The position numbers and the translations under genes were made by a program. The notes under the pieces were generated by a model. The model saw only the letters and a list, made by a program, of their open reading frames with translations. It did no database searches and had not been told where the DNA came from. DNA of 64,000 bases from an uncultured Chloroflexia bacterium (lineage in GTDB: Bacteria > Chloroflexota > Dehalococcoidia > DSTF01 > JALHUB01), in contig OY969814.1 in assembly GCA_963703345.1 (NCBI GenBank), positions 768,001 to 832,000 of the forward strand, written 5' to 3'. Shown here piece after piece: positions 26,950-46,957 of this stretch. Each line of letters begins with the position of its first letter. The first letter of the stretch is position 1.

Positions 26950-27870
26950 ATGGCCGAACAACAGAAGGTCCTCGTCTACGACCGCATCGGCGAAAACCGG
27001 CGCAACACGTTCTTCCTGCTGCTGGTGTTCATCATCGTCGTCGGCGCGGCGCTGGTGGCAGTCGGCATCGCGCTGGGGCTGCCGTTCGCGTTCGCGCCGT
27101 TCCTCATCGTCCCGGTCATCATCTACGCGCTCTTCAGCTACTACAGCTCGACGAATGTGACGCTGGCGATCTCGCAGGCGCACCCGGTGACGAAGGAAGA
27201 GGAGCCGGAGTACTACCGGACGGTCGAGAACCTGTGCATCGCCGCCGGCCTGCCGATGCCGAAGCTGTACGTCATCGAGGACCGGGCACCCAACGCCTTC
27301 GCGACCGGTCGCGACCCCAACCACGCCGTCGTCTGCGTCACGCGGGGCCTCCTGCAGAAGATGGACCACCTGGAGCTGGAGGGCGTGATCGCGCACGAGC
27401 TGTCGCACGTCGGCAACTACGACATCCGGCTGATGACGGTGGTCGTGGTGCTGATTGGCGTCGTGGCGTTGCTGTCGGATTTCATGTTCCGCTTCACGAT
27501 CTGGGGCGCCGGCGGCCGGGCAGGCAACCGCGGTCGCAACGGCGGCTCAGCGGTGATCATCATCTACGCCGTCGCGCTGCTGGCGGCGATCCTGGCGCCG
27601 ATAGCGGCGCAGCTCGTCCGGCTGGCGCTGTCACGGCAGCGGGAGTACCTGGCTGACGCGTCGGGGGCGCTGCTGACGCGCTATCCGGAGGGGCTGGCGA
27701 GCGCGCTGGAGAAGATCGAAAAAGACAACGAGCCGCTGGCGGAGGCGAACAAGGCGACGGCGCATCTGTACATCACCAACCCGCTGAACGAGCACTCGAG
27801 CTGGCTGAACAACCTCTTTTCGACGCACCCGCCGATTGAGAAGCGCATCGCCCTCCTCCGGGCAATGTAG
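26950..27870 (+). CDS. htpX: M48 zinc protease HtpX
   Basis: PNAFATG, AHELSH, SRQREYLAD and LFSTHPP motifs. Confidence 0.92.
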   Translation: MAEQQKVLVYDRIGENRRNTFFLLLVFIIVVGAALVAVGIALGLPFAFAPFLIVPVIIYALFSYYSSTNVTLAISQAHPVTKEEEPEYYRTVENLCIAAGLPMPKLYVIEDRAPNAFATGRDPNHAVVCVTRGLLQKMDHLELEGVIAHELSHVGNYDIRLMTVVVVLIGVVALLSDFMFRFTIWGAGGRAGNRGRNGGSAVIIIYAVALLAAILAPIAAQLVRLALSRQREYLADASGALLTRYPEGLASALEKIEKDNEPLAEANKATAHLYITNPLNEHSSWLNNLFSTHPPIEKRIALLRAM

Positions 27871-27898: not shown

Positions 27899-28162
27899 CT
27901 GGGGGATGAATCCCTCAGCTACGAGATCGTCCAGTGTCGTCGGATCCTGCTAAGCTGAGGGTTTTCAACCCTCAGTGTTGTCTGACCTGTTCTCCACGCA
28001 CCTGCCCATCGAGAAGCGGATCGAGCGGCTGCGCGCGATGTAGGCAGGCGGACGCCTGCGAATCTCTACTGTTCTGAGGGATAAATCCCTCAGATTCCAC
28101 TCATCCCCGCCCTTCGAAAGGGCGTCGGGGGCTCCGTGGCCGAGACTTTCCAACGTTTCGGC
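27899..28162. repeat. cluster of four REP-like hairpins plus an orphan htpX 3' end
   Basis: CTG(A/G)GGG-loop-CCCTCAG hairpins at 27899-27922, 27952-27977 and 28074-28093; GTGGCCGAGACTTTCC variant at 28136-28162. Confidence 0.8.
27984..28043 (+). pseudogene. diverged duplicate of the last 20 codons of htpX
   Basis: DLFSTHLPIEKRIERLRAM* vs NLFSTHPPIEKRIALLRAM*; 45/60 nt identical. Confidence 0.85.
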
Positions 28163-37426: not shown

Positions 37427-38707
37427 ATGACAGACTGGCAAGAGATCGCTGACAAGTACATGATGACGACCTACAAGCGGCTGCCCGTCACGCTGGTCCG
37501 CGGCGAGGGGAGTCGCCTCTGGGATGACCGCGGCAAGGAGTACCTCGACTTCTTCGGCGGGCACGTCGTCGTCAGCCTCGGCCACTGCCACCCGGTCGTC
37601 GTTCAGGCCGTGCGGGAGCAGGCGGCGACGCTGATGCATTACTCCAACATCGTCTACACGACGCCGCAGCTCGAGCTGGCCCGCCTGCTGATCGACAACT
37701 CCTGCTTCGACCGCGCCTTCTTCTGCAACAGCGGCGCGGAGGCGGTCGAGGCCGCGCTCAAGCTGGCGCGGAAGTGGGGGAAGGAGCGTCGCGGCCCAGA
37801 CGGGCGCCCGTCGGGGCGCGCCTTCGAGGTGATCTGCGCCGAGAACGCCTTCCACGGTCGCACGCTGGCCACCGTCACGGCCGGCGGCACGGAGCGCTAC
37901 AAGGCGCCCTTCACGCCGCTGCCGGAGGGCTTCCGCCACGTCCCCTTCAACGACGCGAAAGCCATCGAGGACGCGACGTCGGAGAAGACGTGCGCGGTGC
38001 TGCTGGAGCCAATCCAGGGCGAGGGCGGGATCATCGTGCCCGACGAGGGCTACTTGCGCCGCGTCCGCGATTGGTGCAACCGGCAGAACCTGCTGCTCAT
38101 CCTCGACGAAGTGCAGACGGGAATGGGACGCACCGGCGCGCTCTTTGCCTACCAGCACTTCGGCGTCGAGCCCGACGTGATCACGCTGGCGAAGGGCCTC
38201 GGCGGCGGCTTCCCGATAGGAGCGGTGCTCGCCAAGGAGCATTGCGCCGTCTTCGTCCCCGGCGACCACGGCACGACTTTCGGCGGCAACCCCCTGGCGA
38301 CGAGCGTCGGCCACGCCGTCCTCGAGTACATGTTGGAGCACGACGTTCCGGCGCAGGCGGCGCGCAAGGGCGAGATCCTGGGCCGCAAGCTGTTCGAGCT
38401 GGAAGACCGCCTGGACCTTATCGCGGCGGTGCGCGGCATGGGCATGCTCTGGGGCGTCGAGTTCAAGCAGGAGATCGCGGAAGAGGTCGTGCTGGCCTGC
38501 CTGGAAGGCGGACTAATCGTCAACAACGTGCGCCCTAACGTGCTGCGCCTGTCGCCGCCGCTGACCATCAGCGACGAGGAGCTGGAGCAGGGACTGGCGA
38601 TACTCGAGCGCGTGCTGACGGCGGGAAACGAGCTTGAAAAGGCGTCGGAGCCGGCCTTCGAGCGCGATTGGGTGAGCAAAGAAGACGGCGCCTCCGAGGA
38701 CATGTAA
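37427..38707 (+). CDS. argD: acetylornithine aminotransferase with antitoxin-like C-terminal tail
   Basis: FCNSGAEA, FHGRT, EPIQGEGG, DEVQTG, LAKGLGGG and HGTTFGGNP motifs. Confidence 0.94.
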   Translation: MTDWQEIADKYMMTTYKRLPVTLVRGEGSRLWDDRGKEYLDFFGGHVVVSLGHCHPVVVQAVREQAATLMHYSNIVYTTPQLELARLLIDNSCFDRAFFCNSGAEAVEAALKLARKWGKERRGPDGRPSGRAFEVICAENAFHGRTLATVTAGGTERYKAPFTPLPEGFRHVPFNDAKAIEDATSEKTCAVLLEPIQGEGGIIVPDEGYLRRVRDWCNRQNLLLILDEVQTGMGRTGALFAYQHFGVEPDVITLAKGLGGGFPIGAVLAKEHCAVFVPGDHGTTFGGNPLATSVGHAVLEYMLEHDVPAQAARKGEILGRKLFELEDRLDLIAAVRGMGMLWGVEFKQEIAEEVVLACLEGGLIVNNVRPNVLRLSPPLTISDEELEQGLAILERVLTAGNELEKASEPAFERDWVSKEDGASEDM

Positions 38708-38824: not shown

Positions 38825-39271
38825 ATGGCGAAAAACGCTTCCGAAGAGATCGACCGAAGGGCCCTACTGAAGGACCTGAAAACCATGAGGCAGATCGTCG
38901 ACAGACTGGAAGGCGCGGTTCTGGCATCCGAGGATCGAGGGATTGATCCTTACCGCCGAAGACGTCGACTCTTGAGAGACATATATCTCTCCGGCAACAG
39001 CACGAGTCGAGACGAGTTGGAGCCGGTCCTTCGCTCTCAGCTCACTGACTATCACTGGATCGCGCAGCAGGTTAAGAGAGGGTACCTTGCTGTTCATGCG
39101 CTTCCCGGCGGACATAAACGATTCGCGGTAACTCCCAAAGCCGTCCGCGAGCTTCGTTTGGGAGAGGAAGATGAGGAGGAGCAGGGAATCGACGCGATGA
39201 TGAAGCTGTCTGAAGAAGCCTTCGCAGAGGACTGGGATAGCGACGAAGACGGGATTTATGACAACCTATAG
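38825..39271 (+). CDS. putative antitoxin (wHTH-like N-terminal part, acidic SE..F..DW...ED tail)
   Basis: Overlaps the PemK/MazF gene; GAGGAG RBS; candidate autoregulatory palindrome upstream. Confidence 0.75.
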   Translation: MAKNASEEIDRRALLKDLKTMRQIVDRLEGAVLASEDRGIDPYRRRRRLLRDIYLSGNSTSRDELEPVLRSQLTDYHWIAQQVKRGYLAVHALPGGHKRFAVTPKAVRELRLGEEDEEEQGIDAMMKLSEEAFAEDWDSDEDGIYDNL

Positions 39272-41356: not shown

Positions 41357-41449
41357 ATGTCTATCATCAGGATTGGATTGTCGCTCAATAAGTCCACTCT
41401 TTTCAGGTCGGTCGAGCATTGCCGTGGTTGCTCCGGAACTGAGTCCGGT
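41357..41449 (-). pseudogene. MarR-family regulator fragment
   Basis: TGLSSGATTAMLDRPEKSGLIERQSNPDDRH matches the MarR helix-wing pattern; no intact N- or C-terminus. Confidence 0.65.
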
Positions 41450-41456
41450 ACATATC

Positions 41457-41831
41457 ATGAAACCGAACGAACATATTGATAAGCTAATTGCAGAACTGAC
41501 CGACTGGCGCGGCAAGATATTCGCCGACATTCGGAGGATCATCCTCGAGGCGGATCCGGAGATAGTCGAGGAATGGAAATGGATGGGCACTCCGGTCTGG
41601 TCTCACGGCGGAATAGTCTGTATTGCCAATGCTTTTAAAGATAAGGTGAAGCTGACGTTTTACGAAGGCGCGAGTATCGCGGACCCGGACAAGCTCTACA
41701 ACAGCGGGCTTGAGGGCAAGAAGTGGCGGACCATCGACTATTTCAAAGACGACAAGATCAAGGAGCGCGAGCTGAAGGACCTGGTTCGCTCTGCCGTGGC
41801 CCACAACCTTGCTAGGAAATCAACAAAATGA
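41457..41831 (+). CDS. DUF1801 (YdhG-like) protein
   Basis: DWRG...IRRIILEADPEIVEEWKWMGTPVWSH...KVKLTF. Confidence 0.85.
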   Translation: MKPNEHIDKLIAELTDWRGKIFADIRRIILEADPEIVEEWKWMGTPVWSHGGIVCIANAFKDKVKLTFYEGASIADPDKLYNSGLEGKKWRTIDYFKDDKIKERELKDLVRSAVAHNLARKSTK

Positions 41832-42737: not shown

Positions 42738-44174
42738 ATGCCTGACTCGGAAGGGCGCCCCAGTCGTCGCAGGGAGCGCGTAAAGCCCTGGAGCGGACGC
42801 TTCGCCGCAAAGACGCATCCCCTCGTTGACGCCTACACCGGCTCCCTCGATGTCGACGCCGCGCTCTACGCTCAGGACATCCGCGCCTCGATCGCCCATG
42901 CCCGGATGCTGGCGCGACAACGCATCATCCCCCGCGCCGACGCCAACGCCATCGTGCGCGGCCTGCGCGAGATCGAACGCGAGATTGAGCGCGGCGAGTT
43001 CGTCTTCAACGCCGCGTTGGAGGACATCCACACGAACATCGAGGCGCGATTGGAGGAGAAGATAGGCGCGGCGGCGGGCCGGCTGCACACCGCCCGCTCC
43101 CGCAACGACCAGGTCGCAACGGACCTCCGTCTCTTCGCCAAGGAAGCGATAGCGCATTTACTCGGGGCGCTTCAAGGTCTGCAAACCGCGCTCCTGGACG
43201 CCGCTGAGCGGAACAAGGACGTGGTGATCCCCGGCTACACGCATCTCCAGCGGGCGCAGCCCGTCCTCCTGGCGCATCATCTGCTGGCCTACTTCGAGAT
43301 GCTGGAGCGCGATTTCGAGCGCTTCTCCGGCTGCTATGTTCGCACCGACGTCCTGCCGCTCGGAAGCGGGGCTCTCGCAGGCGTGCCGTATCCGGTGGAT
43401 AGAGCGGCGGTCGCGCGGGAGCTCGATTTCGCCGCCATAAGCCGCAACAGCATCGACGCCGTGTCCGACCGCGACTTCGTGGCGGAGTTCCTCGCCTGCG
43501 CAGCCATCTGCGCCATGCACCTCTCGCGACTGGCGGAGGAGATCGTTTTGTGGTCGTCGGCGGAGTTCGCCTTTATTGAGATCGACGACGCCTTTGCCAC
43601 CGGCTCCAGCATCATGCCGCAGAAGAAAAACCCGGACGTCGCGGAGCTGGCGCGGGGACGCACGGGACGCATCTACGGGCGGCTCGTGGGGTTCCTGACG
43701 ACGCTCAAGGGGCTGCCGCTGTCCTACAATCGCGACCTCCAGGAGGACAAAGCGCCGTTCCTGGACACGCACGAGAGCCTTCTGTTGACGCTGGTCGTGT
43801 TCGCGGAGATGCTGCCGGCCATCCGCTTCAACGCGGAGCGAACGCGGGCGGCGGCGGCGACGGGCTACACGCTGGCAACCGACCTGGCCGACTACCTGGC
43901 GCGAAAGGGAACGCCTTTCCGCGAGGCGCACCAGGCGGTCGGAAAGCTGGTCCGCTACGCTTCGGGCGGGGGCAAGGAGCTGTCGGAGCTGACGCTGAGA
44001 GAGTACCGGCGCTTCTCGCCTTTGTTCGACGAAGACGTGCTGGGACTTGACGTCGAGACGTCGTTGCGGGCGCGAGACGTTCCTGGCGGCACGGCGCCGA
44101 ATCGCGTGGCGGAGGCGCTGGCGGAGGCGCGGCAGCGGCTTGCCCGGCGCGAAATCGGGGAGAATGATGGCTGA
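42738..44174 (+). CDS. argH: argininosuccinate lyase
   Basis: WSGRF, HTARSRNDQ and GSSIMPQKKNPD motifs. Confidence 0.96.
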   Translation: MPDSEGRPSRRRERVKPWSGRFAAKTHPLVDAYTGSLDVDAALYAQDIRASIAHARMLARQRIIPRADANAIVRGLREIEREIERGEFVFNAALEDIHTNIEARLEEKIGAAAGRLHTARSRNDQVATDLRLFAKEAIAHLLGALQGLQTALLDAAERNKDVVIPGYTHLQRAQPVLLAHHLLAYFEMLERDFERFSGCYVRTDVLPLGSGALAGVPYPVDRAAVARELDFAAISRNSIDAVSDRDFVAEFLACAAICAMHLSRLAEEIVLWSSAEFAFIEIDDAFATGSSIMPQKKNPDVAELARGRTGRIYGRLVGFLTTLKGLPLSYNRDLQEDKAPFLDTHESLLLTLVVFAEMLPAIRFNAERTRAAAATGYTLATDLADYLARKGTPFREAHQAVGKLVRYASGGGKELSELTLREYRRFSPLFDEDVLGLDVETSLRARDVPGGTAPNRVAEALAEARQRLARREIGENDG

Positions 44175-44850
44175 CGGTATCAAGATCGCGCCTTCGATTC
44201 TCTCCGCCGACTACCTGCGTCTGGGCGAGCAGGTCCGGGAGGCCGAGGCCGCCGGCGCCGACTACATCCACGTCGACGTCATGGACGGGCATTTCGTGCC
44301 CAACATTACCATCGGACCGGTCGTCGTCGAGGCGATCAGGCGGGCGACGCGGCTGCCGCTGGACGTTCACCTGATGATCGAGGAGCCGGAACGGCACGTG
44401 GAGGCGTTCGCGAAGGCGGGCGCCTCATTCCTGACCGTGCACCCGGAGGCGACGCAGCAGCTTCATCGCACCGTCGCCTCGATACGGCGTCTGAATGTGC
44501 GGCCGGGCGTCGCGCTGAACCCGGGAACCTCTGTCTCGCTGGTCGAGGACGTGCTGGCGGACGTCGACCTTGTGCTGGTCATGAGCGTCGACCCGGGCTT
44601 CGGCGGGCAGGAGTTCATCGAAGGCGTCCTGCCGAAGGCGCGTCGACTGCGGAAACTGCTGGATGACGGCGGGTTAGCGGCGGAACTGGAGATCGATGGC
44701 GGCATCACCGTCGAGACGGCGCCGCGCTGCGTCCAGGCGGGCGTGCACGTGCTGGTGGCGGGCACGGCGGTGTTCAACGAAAAGCGAAGCGTAGCCGAGA
44801 GCATTGCCGCGCTGCGACAGAGCGTCGCGGGCGTGGTCGTCGCGGGATGA
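44164..44850 (+). CDS. rpe: ribulose-phosphate 3-epimerase
   Basis: IAPSILSAD, HVDVMDGHFVPNIT, DVHLMI and PGFGGQ motifs. Confidence 0.96.
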   Translation: MMADGIKIAPSILSADYLRLGEQVREAEAAGADYIHVDVMDGHFVPNITIGPVVVEAIRRATRLPLDVHLMIEEPERHVEAFAKAGASFLTVHPEATQQLHRTVASIRRLNVRPGVALNPGTSVSLVEDVLADVDLVLVMSVDPGFGGQEFIEGVLPKARRLRKLLDDGGLAAELEIDGGITVETAPRCVQAGVHVLVAGTAVFNEKRSVAESIAALRQSVAGVVVAG

Positions 44851-44861
44851 GGACGAGGATG

Positions 44862-44901
44862 CGGTCAGACGGTCGCTTTCGACCGGGTGCGCAGGCAGCG
44901 G
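44862..44901 (-). pseudogene. duplicate of the rpmB 3' end (RCLRTRSKATV*)
   Basis: 37/40 nt identical to 44976-45015; all three differences are synonymous third positions. Confidence 0.85.
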
Positions 44902-44914
44902 AGAGGGGGGACCG

Positions 44915-44939
44915 CACTGAGGGATAAATCCCTCAGCTT
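44915..44939 (-). repeat. REP-like hairpin AAGCTGAGGG-ATTTAT-CCCTCAGTG
   Basis: Same arms as 27952-27977; identical 20-nt core to 28074-28093. Confidence 0.8.
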
Positions 44940-44978
44940 CTTGGAAGGAACGTTGTTGGCGGGAAGTCGATGAGACGG

Positions 44979-45191
44979 TCAGACAGTCGCTTTCGACCGA
45001 GTGCGCAGGCACCGGGTGCAGATGTTCACTCTGGCGGCGCGTCCGTCGACGTAGATGGTCTGCTTGTGGACGTTGGGGCGAAACATGCGGTTCGTGCGGG
45101 GCGCTTTTCGCTCCCACCTACCGGCGTGACGGTGACGGATGTTTCGTCCGAAGGCGGTCGTCTTGCCGCAGAGTTCGCATTTGCCGGCCAT
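44979..45191 (-). CDS. rpmB: 50S ribosomal protein L28
   Basis: MAGKCELCGK...G.N...TNRMFRPNV...ICTRCLR. Confidence 0.93.
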   Translation of the reverse strand: MAGKCELCGKTTAFGRNIRHRHAGRWERKAPRTNRMFRPNVHKQTIYVDGRAARVNICTRCLRTRSKATV

Positions 45192-45277
45192 AGGGCAATC
45201 CTTTACGGGGTAGGTCCGTTCTTGGTAGAATTCGAAGGCGATCCTAACACGCCGCGGCGCACGGAGGCAAGTTCCCA

Positions 45278-46957
45278 TTGACCAGCATCGAATCGGATAG
45301 GCGTGCGGCCGACCGCGGCGGGAACGGCGCCGGCACGGCCACTTATTCCGGCGGAGAGCTGCGCGAGATGTTCGCCGCCGCGACGAGCTGGCTTGAGTGC
45401 AACGCCCAGGCCATCAACTCTATCAACGTCTTCCCTGTCCCTGACGGCGACACCGGCACCAACATGTACCTCACGATGCTGGCGACGATGGACGAGGCGT
45501 ATCAGAGCGGCAGCGAGGCCGCCAACGTCGTCGCCGGGGCGATGGCCCACGGCGCGCTCATGGGGGCGCGCGGCAACTCCGGCGTAATCCTCTCGCAGAT
45601 CCTTCGCGGCTTTGCCGACGGTCTTTCCGACAAGGAACGTTTCGATAGCCAGGACTTCGTCGCCGCGCTGGATGAAGCCACGCTGCGGGCGGACCGCGCC
45701 GTTTCGCATCCCGTCGAAGGGACGATCTTGACGGTCATGCGCGCCGTCGCCGCCGCCGCCCGCGACCGGTCGAAAGAGCTCGGCGGCAACCTGAAGAGCG
45801 TTCTCGCCGCCGCCGTCGACGCAGCCAAGGACGCCGTCGCGAAGACGCCCAGCCTGCTGCCGGCGCTGCGGGAGGCGGGCGTCGTGGATGCCGGCGGCCA
45901 GGGCCTGTACGTGATGCTGGAGGGGGCGCTGCGCTACCTCCGCGGCGACCTTGCGTCGCTGGCGCCGCTAGCCGTGCAGGACCCGGAGCGCTCCTGGGCG
46001 CGCGCGACGACGGCGTTGCACGGCGGCGAGGAAGGCAGCTTCGGCTTCTGCACGGAGTTCCTGGTGAGCGGCGAGAAGCTTAACGCCGGGTCGGTGCTGG
46101 AACGAATGCTGGAGATGGGCGATTCCGTGCTCGTTGTCGGAGATGAGAAACTGCTGCGCGTTCACCTGCACACCTCTGAGCCGGATGCCGCGATAGGCTT
46201 CGGCCGGTCGCTGGGCGAGCTGTCGCAGGTGAAGGTTGACAACATAGAGGAGCAGGCGGAGCGGTTCATCGCCCACGCGCGCGGCTACGAGGGTGACCTG
46301 GGAGCAGTGGGCATCGTCGCCGTCGTGTCGGGAGCGGGCCTGGAGGACGTGTTCCGCAGCCTGGGCGCAACGGCAACCGTCCAGGGCGGCGCGACGATGA
46401 ACCCCAGCACGCGCCAGATACTGGCGGCAATCGAGTCCTGCTCGCAGGAAGACGTCATCGTACTGCCGAACAACAAGAACGTCGTCCTTGCCGGCCAGCA
46501 GGCCGCGAAGCACAGTCACAAGCGCGTGCGGGTGGTCGGGACGACGTCGGTGCCGCAGGGGATGGCGGCGCTGGTGGCCCTCAGCCCGGAACAAGACCTG
46601 GACGACAACGCCCAGCTCATGGAAGCGGCGCGTCAGGACGTCCGGACGATCGAGGTGACGAAAGCGATCCGCACGACCTCAATCGACGGCCTCCGAGTGC
46701 GCGTCGGGCAGGCGATTGCGCTCGTCGACGGCAAACTCACGGTCGCCGACGAGTCGGCACATGCGGCTGTACTCGAGGCGCTGCGGCAGACCATCTCGCC
46801 GGAGATGAGCCTCGTCACAATCTACTTCGGCGCGGAATCGACGCGAGAGGACGCGGAAGGGCTGGCGGCTGAGATCCGCGCCATGTATCCTTCTCTGGAG
46901 ACAGAGGTTGTTTCCGGGGGCCAGCCCCACTACGCCTACATCGTCTCCCTGGAGTGA
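45278..46957 (+). CDS. DAK2-domain fatty acid kinase subunit (FakA/YloV)
   Basis: INVFPVPDGDTGTNM, GARGNSGVILSQ, EGTILTV and GGQPHY motifs. Confidence 0.92.
   Translation: MTSIESDRRAADRGGNGAGTATYSGGELREMFAAATSWLECNAQAINSINVFPVPDGDTGTNMYLTMLATMDEAYQSGSEAANVVAGAMAHGALMGARGNSGVILSQILRGFADGLSDKERFDSQDFVAALDEATLRADRAVSHPVEGTILTVMRAVAAAARDRSKELGGNLKSVLAAAVDAAKDAVAKTPSLLPALREAGVVDAGGQGLYVMLEGALRYLRGDLASLAPLAVQDPERSWARATTALHGGEEGSFGFCTEFLVSGEKLNAGSVLERMLEMGDSVLVVGDEKLLRVHLHTSEPDAAIGFGRSLGELSQVKVDNIEEQAERFIAHARGYEGDLGAVGIVAVVSGAGLEDVFRSLGATATVQGGATMNPSTRQILAAIESCSQEDVIVLPNNKNVVLAGQQAAKHSHKRVRVVGTTSVPQGMAALVALSPEQDLDDNAQLMEAARQDVRTIEVTKAIRTTSIDGLRVRVGQAIALVDGKLTVADESAHAAVLEALRQTISPEMSLVTIYFGAESTREDAEGLAAEIRAMYPSLETEVVSGGQPHYAYIVSLE

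Follow-up and report, generated by a model that had tools for sequence, protein, structure and literature searches.

REP-like hairpins between two alleles of one gene end in Dehalococcoidia: recurrent scars and a possible one-sided integration involving a Y1 transposase

The rpmB site and its counterparts in relatives

The window, as we call the whole 64,000-nt stretch of DNA that was analysed, belongs to a 2.28-Mb single-contig genome (G000; relatives are labelled G001 to G008 and so on, and L-numbers denote loci). At the site studied, an intact rpmB and its convergent neighbour rpe, both identified with NCBIfam models, are separated by a second, orphaned copy of the rpmB 3′ end (Table 1). 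The two end copies align without gaps at a period of 114 nt, are identical at 37 of 40 positions, and both translate on the minus strand to RCLRTRSKATV*. The mismatches (cgg/cgc, act/acc, and act/acc) are all third-position and synonymous, with the C-ending codon always in the orphan, exactly as an earlier note on this DNA had described, three synonymous changes out of three being weak evidence on their own (p about 0.03). Between the copies lies an insert of 74 nt (∼75 bp in that note) with a single REP-like hairpin, situated 42 nt past the stop codon of the gene and 15 nt ahead of the orphan (13 nt if the longer arm drawn in the note is counted).

Table 1. Features of the rpmB and htpX sites, in positions of the window
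Feature	Position	Strand	Remark
rpmB (ribosomal protein L28), intact	44979..45191	-	TIGR00009, 58.3 bits against a cut-off of 48.3
Working rpmB 3′ end, 12 codons including stop, plus 3 nt	44976..45015	-	likely incoming allele
Spacer, 39 nt	44937..44975	-	44937-44961 shares homology with inner doublet spacers at other places in this genome
REP-like hairpin, CTGAGGG-loop-CCCTCAG	44917..44936	+	conserved foot side toward the orphan
Linker, 15 nt, between the foot of the hairpin and the non-homologous joint within the former rpmB end	44902..44916	-	
Orphan rpmB 3′ end, resident-type allele	44862..44901	-	stop at 44865-44867
rpmB-rpe spacer, 14 nt	44851..44864		length and start as in empty-site relatives (L003, L004: gap 14)
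rpe, convergent neighbour	44164..44850	+	TIGR01163, over cut-off
htpX-like gene	26950..27870	+	NF003425, 351 bits against a cut-off of 355
Hairpin doublet after htpX	27899..27975 (27899-27918, 27955-27975)		
Orphan htpX 3′ end, diverged allele	27978..28043	+	11/14 differences at third codon positions
Third hairpin, past the orphan htpX end	28074..28093	+	

Because the part of the spacer next to the hairpin is homologous to the inner spacer of doublets, the rpmB insert is half a doublet; together, spacer and hairpin match the glyA-side doublet in 38 of 45 columns of a local alignment. The 86-nt hairpin region folds as a single-stranded DNA stem-loop (z −2.8), and the hairpin pattern occurs three times in the window as against 0.00 in 100 shuffles. 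The rpmB end copy scores 31/33, and the fraction of permuted gene-end/downstream pairs reaching 24/33 was 0.0 (three permutations, 1858 genes). An Rfam scan of 44700-45300 gave no matches at E up to 1, the rpmB-end repeat was absent from the top families of a whole-window repeat search, and no integrase was recognised among the ORFs at 42-48 kb of the window.

The rpmB-rpe site was compared in eight same-genus genomes. In G002 and G003 the gap between the genes is 14 nt, i.e., the site is empty, and the DNA after the orphan in G000 equals this empty site; both genomes contain few matches to the hairpin pattern (6 and 5, versus 2 and 4 in controls). The gap measures 16-59 nt in G004, G005, and G006, and larger inserts are present in G001 (533 nt), G010 (961 nt), and G008 (1424 nt), so that empty sites and larger inserts, both of which the earlier note had suggested looking for, do exist. 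A homologous insert with an orphan is found in G007, 86% identical to G000 over the region. That note had also named duplication without the REP as evidence against its reading, and this was found in part: G001 has a shorter rpmB end copy adjoining a hairpin of a different family, and in G000 the ruvC, NUDIX, dnaE2-like, and radC-like gene ends have copies without the studied hairpin. At the G001 locus (L006), the rpmB end copy lies ∼15 nt after the different-family hairpin, and a doublet of the studied family is located further on.

When compared to G002 and G003 (36 bases), the orphan is identical at 35 positions and the working copy at 32, so the orphan is the resident-type end and the working copy likely the incoming allele. 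Between the orphans of G000 and G007 there are four differences, every one synonymous, which argues that each was under coding constraint after the two split, whether through separate orphaning or later refreshing; neutral decay from one shared event does not readily fit the differences.

Recurrence of the scar, position of the joint, and divergence of the copies

G000 carries 30 hairpins in 19 clusters. A genome-wide count of co-occurrence, such as the earlier note had proposed, showed downstream copies at 4 (rpmB, htpX, glyA, and dprA) of the 23 gene ends that have a hairpin no more than 250 nt away, compared to 7 of the 947 that do not (odds ratio 28, p = 7e-5), as based on our own gene calls and a threshold of 24/33 identity. 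Because at least two of the seven hairpin-free matches are not gene-end scars (a tRNA att repeat and a low-complexity repeat), this enrichment is conservative. Two likely hairpin-side cases fall below the threshold (22 and 23 of 33), at the protein level a polyprenyl synthase gene clearly adds a fifth case (score 95), and a sixth gene and a worn 5′-end remnant are likely further ones. A foot-side repeat scan of the same genome gave seven matches, two of which are repeats of another element and not gene ends.

The hairpin pattern is also abundant in the congeners G001, G007, and G008, with 48, 42, and 68 matches (control 0, 0, and 1). Hairpin clusters with a foot-side repeat number 5/26, 12/27, and 12/35, respectively, or 29 of 88 together, a few being non-coding; these counts take in most, not all, hairpin sites, nine G001 clusters had short flanks, and events in kin genomes are not independent. 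Among the congener scars, the glyA, htpX, dprA, and NUDIX ends recur, and others, going by their motifs, are presumably nadD-, hspR-, lepA-, and sucB-like 3′ ends and sucD- and dnaK-like 5′ ends. More than 20 unrelated genes are scarred, at 5′ as well as 3′ ends. The claim that unrelated conserved genes carry one and the same scar, tied to the hairpin, thus extends to many core genes, and the worry that rpmB and htpX might be the only two cases falls away, as there are at least four in G000 besides those of the congeners. At the lepA-like gene, G000 has gene, doublet, and native DNA in succession, a clean donor-like allele, and G008 has a homologous insert with a linker that matches about the first 10 nt of the G000 native flank, followed by the orphan. 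Congener scars often form tandem arrays of 2-8 units, and in G008 three of these (L138, L142, and L151) mix different alleles, linkers, and loop types at one gene. In the wider collection, all 69 matches to the hairpin pattern come from records titled Dehalococcoidia, Chloroflexia, or Chloroflexota. Of 22 further hairpins there, only 2 are flanked by a copy, in one case a gene end (linker 4-7 nt) and in the other non-coding DNA, which counts against generality.

Several arrangements in these genomes were recorded alongside. The array at L138 spans ∼1.1 kb after glyA, with two glyA end alleles alternating with different spacers; at L055 and L130, also in G008, hairpin-plus-spacer tandem arrays directly follow tnpA, and a 196-bp array starts at a hairpin. 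A second repeat family, made of 58-bp head-to-tail units, has 28 copies at ∼12 places in G000 (e.g., 699370-699560 and 1849625-1850047). It sits between gene end and orphan at ruvC and the NUDIX gene (L024 and L025), where the joint falls in a short match between repeat and gene, 10 nt long at ruvC. The radC-like 3′ end (L027, G000:C1:858932-860560) is repeated 821 nt on, around a lipoprotein-like gene, with no family hairpin, and the scar is nested, as a second radC-like end directly precedes a remnant of the lipoprotein-like gene's own 3′ end. Downstream of the dnaE2-like 3′ end (L026, G000:C1:310480-310900), a copy follows after 390 nt; the family hairpin is absent there, and the insert contains a small ORF. 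The C-terminus of an argD-like gene (ending at 38707) resembles the end of a small ORF ∼560 nt downstream (window 39158-39271; protein score 61), which adjoins a likely toxin-antitoxin-type pair (site given as window 41400-41830). One and the same hairpin doublet has opposite orientations to the same gene at G000:C1:37922-37989 and at L101 in G007.

The joint keeps a narrow distance from the hairpin. In 26 of 29 cases, the automatic value from joint to stem was 7-18 nt; of the outliers (35, 35, and 38 nt), the two at 35 nt proved by eye to be mis-registered arrays, and the third becomes 18 nt if its orphan has a 1-nt indel. A curated set of 28 joints, from which htpX of G000 was omitted as too diverged to place, in which shared events were partly merged and five linker lengths re-placed by eye, and to which three cases were added, lies 6-18 nt from the hairpin foot (median 12). 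The foot-side scan reached 45 nt from the hairpin, and an uncapped self-BLAST contributed two more repeats, a non-coding one at about 46 nt and a tRNA att repeat. The flanking repeats are 35-135 nt long, and the glyA joints differ among three genomes. No target or cleavage motif (dinucleotide or tetranucleotide consensus) was found at the 28 joints; 16 of these have C as the first base of the orphan, and the linker tails are pyrimidine-rich. Guide-target pairing at the joint, hinted at by the fold of the rpmB site, was not significant over the 28 joints (permutation p 0.17 and 0.32).

Polarity is equally regular. The foot points toward the orphan in every one of the 16 coding cases with a single hairpin, and the linker there is shorter than the inner gap, whereas unscarred single hairpins point away from the neighbouring gene 3′ end in 16 cases and toward it in 18; some single hairpins are decayed doublets, however, whose outer side is a foot by construction. 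The cluster scan found no gene-end copy on the inner hairpin side alone. At htpX, the second case in the window, the copies are 73% identical and the orphan has a Pro to Leu change in the conserved HPP motif. The earlier note had htpX matching rpmB in hairpin arms, orientation, and position; the polarity and hairpin subtype do agree, but the exact layout does not, with a doublet and a third hairpin in place of one hairpin and a linker (about 2-9 nt) shorter than at rpmB.

The two copies of a gene end differ as alleles do. Over 19 coding pairs, there are 13, 16, and 64 differences at codon positions 1, 2, and 3, or 59 synonymous changes on 233 sites versus 34 non-synonymous on 682 (pN/pS 0.20, as compared to 0.24 on 26 pairs before cleaning). 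The starting set was 29 pairs, three of which had no assigned frame (the G001 htpX array, G007 NUDIX, and G008 sucD-like), and seven more were set aside because they were non-coding or mis-registered or because another genome shares them. Because a simple duplicate left to decay would change at all positions, both copies must have diverged under coding constraint. Several G007 and G008 pairs are 97-100% identical, and same-cell duplication explains these equally well; some orphans carry indels or are worn to about 20 nt. The copy closer to relatives is the orphan at dprA (against G003 and G005) but the working one at htpX (53-59 versus 46-50 of 66) and at the polyprenyl synthase gene (67-68 versus 62-66 of 79, three closest relatives), and at glyA the relatives give no clear resident copy. 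The idea that the orphan is the host's original end therefore holds at rpmB and is not general; the htpX pattern may stem from a mirror reaction or from the gene body having been replaced later.

The hairpin family and its transposase

In relatives, the studied hairpins bracket a Y1 transposase gene in inverted orientation. A Y1 ORF with the hairpin beside it was found at 7 of 25 loci (L043, L044, L047, L049, L051, L052, and L055), and at two more the hairpins are present with no ORF picked by the script. The PF01797 profile matched 28 of 41 genomes but not G000 (95.85% complete), where neither family nor protein search found a Y1 transposase gene. The protein is ∼129 aa long, with H52 and H54 (HUH) and Y117 and Q121 (YxxxQ) invariant in all seven aligned. 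The two proteins scored against NCBIfam models passed NF033573 for IS200/IS605 (76-78 bits, cut-off 55) and failed NF047646 for RAYT (38-41 bits, cut-off 80), and the closest solved structures by sequence are PDB 2xm3, 2xma, and 2xo6 (E 1e-14), which we take to be ISDra2 TnpA. The hairpin foot is of a variable A/G-C-A/G-G-T-T type, with no GTAG or GTGG tetranucleotide in the flanks listed, and the stem 5′ base is CTGA in the commonest copies and CTGC in others. At L043 (G023), an entire hairpin-tnpA-hairpin unit has an allele of a methyltransferase-like gene 5′ end on either side, the two alleles being different, with the joint 18 nt from the foot. The gene comEC was found in 5 of 5 genomes tested, with matches also in 10 of 14 control genomes, and dprA is present in G000. 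In G008, where scars are many, comEC appears as two adjacent pieces (G008:C1:2078626-2079460), possibly through a frameshift or sequencing error.

The arrangement shares with REPtrons, i.e., TnpA-REP (RAYT) with REP and REPIN/BIME elements (PMC3333891, PMC8266576, PMC3116915, PMC3337134), its dispersed intergenic hairpins, inverted doublets, inverted hairpins around one Y1 gene, and tandem units that include flanking DNA. It differs in that the transposase scores as IS200/IS605 TnpA and not as RAYT and the foot lacks GTAG; set against the accessible parts of those papers, the flanking repeat as a two-allele gene end and the narrow joint distance are found only here. Gene-fragment capture next to BIMEs is mentioned in PMC3333891, and tandem REPIN units including flanking DNA are given in the accessible parts of PMC3116915 and PMC3337134 without a mechanism. 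Class 3 TnpA-Y1 proteins (Quentin et al. 2018, PMC6006769) resemble ours, by their published description, in the YxxxQ motif and in a layout like that of REPtrons, with atypical hairpins present in many copies and a CnGA tetranucleotide at the stem 5′ base, as in the CTGA of our commonest copies. That class is reported mainly from Planctomycetes, Acidobacteria, and Proteobacteria, and the accessible part of the paper mentions no gene-end scars. IS200/IS605 elements (ISDra2 and IS608 TnpA; PDB 2xm3, 2xo6, and 2vhg) likewise combine HUH and YxxxQ with a strand-specific cut away from a subterminal hairpin, but they have no flanking repeats and a fixed, guide-set target tetranucleotide, in contrast to the long allelic repeats, inverted identical hairpins, and absence of a target consensus here. 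A literature search, mostly of open-access papers, found no allelic gene-end duplicates at REP feet; supplements (e.g., Fig. S7, PMC3116915, PMC3333891) may bear on novelty. By its sequence features, this is a REP/REPtron-type system in Dehalococcoidia, with allelic gene-end scars as a variant feature.

A possible one-sided integration and its alternatives

With moderate confidence, we read the scar as a REP-like hairpin between two alleles of one gene end, formed by a one-sided integration involving the Y1 transposase. An IS200-type Y1 TnpA would bind the hairpin of a single-stranded DNA donated by a related strain or another lineage and arriving, for example, through transformation; it would cut this DNA ∼6-18 nt beyond the foot and hold the 5′ end. 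RecA would pair the donor gene end with the resident gene, anchoring the other end, and the 3′-OH of the displaced resident strand, inside the paired gene end, would attack the phosphotyrosine. Because the receiving 3′-OH would lie on the RecA-displaced strand, the joint would fall 35-135 nt inside the homologous gene end, hence the duplication. The product would have the order gene, donor end, spacer, hairpin, linker, resident end, and native flank, as seen at rpmB; the tandem arrays could then be built by unequal exchange at a later time or by further events of this kind, and the orphan, being without function, would decay. Indeed, a TnpA-REP (RAYT-type) enzyme cuts single-stranded DNA mainly near the hairpin, and an added oligonucleotide 3′-OH resolves the 5′-phosphotyrosine (PMC8266576).

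What is observed is the anatomy and its repeated occurrence, the tight spacing of the joint, the common polarity, a divergence like that of alleles, and, in relatives, a transposase gene within the same hairpins; from these we infer every catalytic step, including TnpA as the cutter. We count in favor of one-sided integration the enrichment at hairpins, the joint distance, the polarity, the allelic divergence, the lepA-like donor allele, the L043 unit, and the presence of comEC and dprA, and against it the lack of a joint motif, the lack of a Y1 gene in G000, the low yield among wider hairpins (2/22), the working copy being the resident one at some genes, and the hairpin-free copies. Y1 enzymes normally choose their sites via a guide sequence.

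A somewhat unlikely alternative would confine the process to one lineage and two steps: TnpA nicks beside a resident hairpin, synthesis from the 3′-OH copies the hairpin and enters the gene before the end is rejoined, and a later exchange replaces one copy and removes the second hairpin. This equals the amplification model of Fig. 7B in PMC3333891, and it would suit the near-identical arrays of G001, G007, and G008, which have the cognate tnpA, as against none among the 19 clusters of G000, which does not, as well as the array at L110, which ends in a full unit and has one linker throughout. In most arrays, however, the last element is a gene-end copy with native DNA behind it, not another hairpin unit, the DNA past the rpmB orphan equals the empty site, and arrays mix alleles and linkers; a second event is needed in most diverged cases. 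One-sided integration and this two-step TnpA route may both operate.

Passive homology-facilitated illegitimate recombination (HFIR), in which the hairpin, bare or protein-bound, would only stop the tail trimming of incoming DNA and joining would be by chance micro-homology, we consider unlikely. HFIR also yields one homologous end and one non-homologous joint (PMC3240628). The absence of a joint motif, the similar scars from other hairpin families and hairpin-free inserts, the ruvC joint in a 10-nt match with the 58-bp repeat, and the frequent first C (16/28) after pyrimidine-rich linker tails all speak for it, but a mere block should ignore orientation, and yet scarred hairpins lie 16/16 one way against a 16:18 background (some, again, being decayed doublets). 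Moreover, as described in PMC3240628, HFIR usually deletes about as much as it inserts and uses 3-10 nt of micro-homology, in contrast to the duplication, apparently little micro-homology, and foot-tied joint seen here.

The earlier note likened the scars to att-like restoration of a 3′ end, as would be left by an integrative element that brought a replacement gene end and later lost its cargo. It is established that integrative elements can replace gene ends (e14 and phage 21 at icd), and such elements leave a working replacement and a displaced orphan with synonymous differences, as here; the larger rpmB-rpe inserts in G001, G010, and G008 would also fit. However, those elements have one fixed site and an integrase, whereas here no integrase was seen among the ORFs at 42-48 kb of the window, more than 20 unrelated genes are hit at both 5′ and 3′ ends, the joints vary (glyA differing among three genomes), and the tie to the hairpin foot is constant. 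An integrase att scar is thus very unlikely, the hairpin being instead the end structure of a Y1 (HUH) transposase unit. Selection of the orphans as spare or alternative C-terminal cassettes is more improbable still: the pN/pS of 0.20 and the synonymous-only differences between the two rpmB orphans would agree with it, but both rpmB copies specify one and the same peptide, orphans lack a start, in the htpX orphan the proline of the HPP motif is changed to leucine, and others carry indels or are worn to about 20 nt. Least credible is an assembly artefact or chance repeat, for although the genomes come from uncultured organisms, with no spanning read set among eight sequencing runs (best share 0.14) and contigs of four of the eight, none spanning, the homologous insert and orphan recur in the independent genome G007 (86%) and the null fraction at threshold was 0.0.

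Returning to one-sided integration, we tentatively suggest, from the comparison of these genomes, that REP-type hairpins may spread between strains and species by a hybrid reaction in which one-ended integration by a Y1 enzyme is combined with RecA homology in a core gene, swapping the gene end and orphaning the old one. The movement of REP/REPIN elements has been called unresolved (PMC8266576, PMC3337134). If true, this reaction would let cargo enter without an integrase or a second homology arm, would amount to homology-targeted one-arm insertion, and would answer how REPs reach new sites. The scars offer a measurable footprint (a joint 6-18 nt from the foot, one polarity, and two alleles) and a candidate 129-aa enzyme, so the question is testable in vitro. 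REPINs are viewed as vertically inherited (bioRxiv 2021.07.10.451892); if the donor DNA is foreign, REP spread would, contrary to that view, be partly horizontal, and core-gene ends would have been repeatedly replaced in these organisms.
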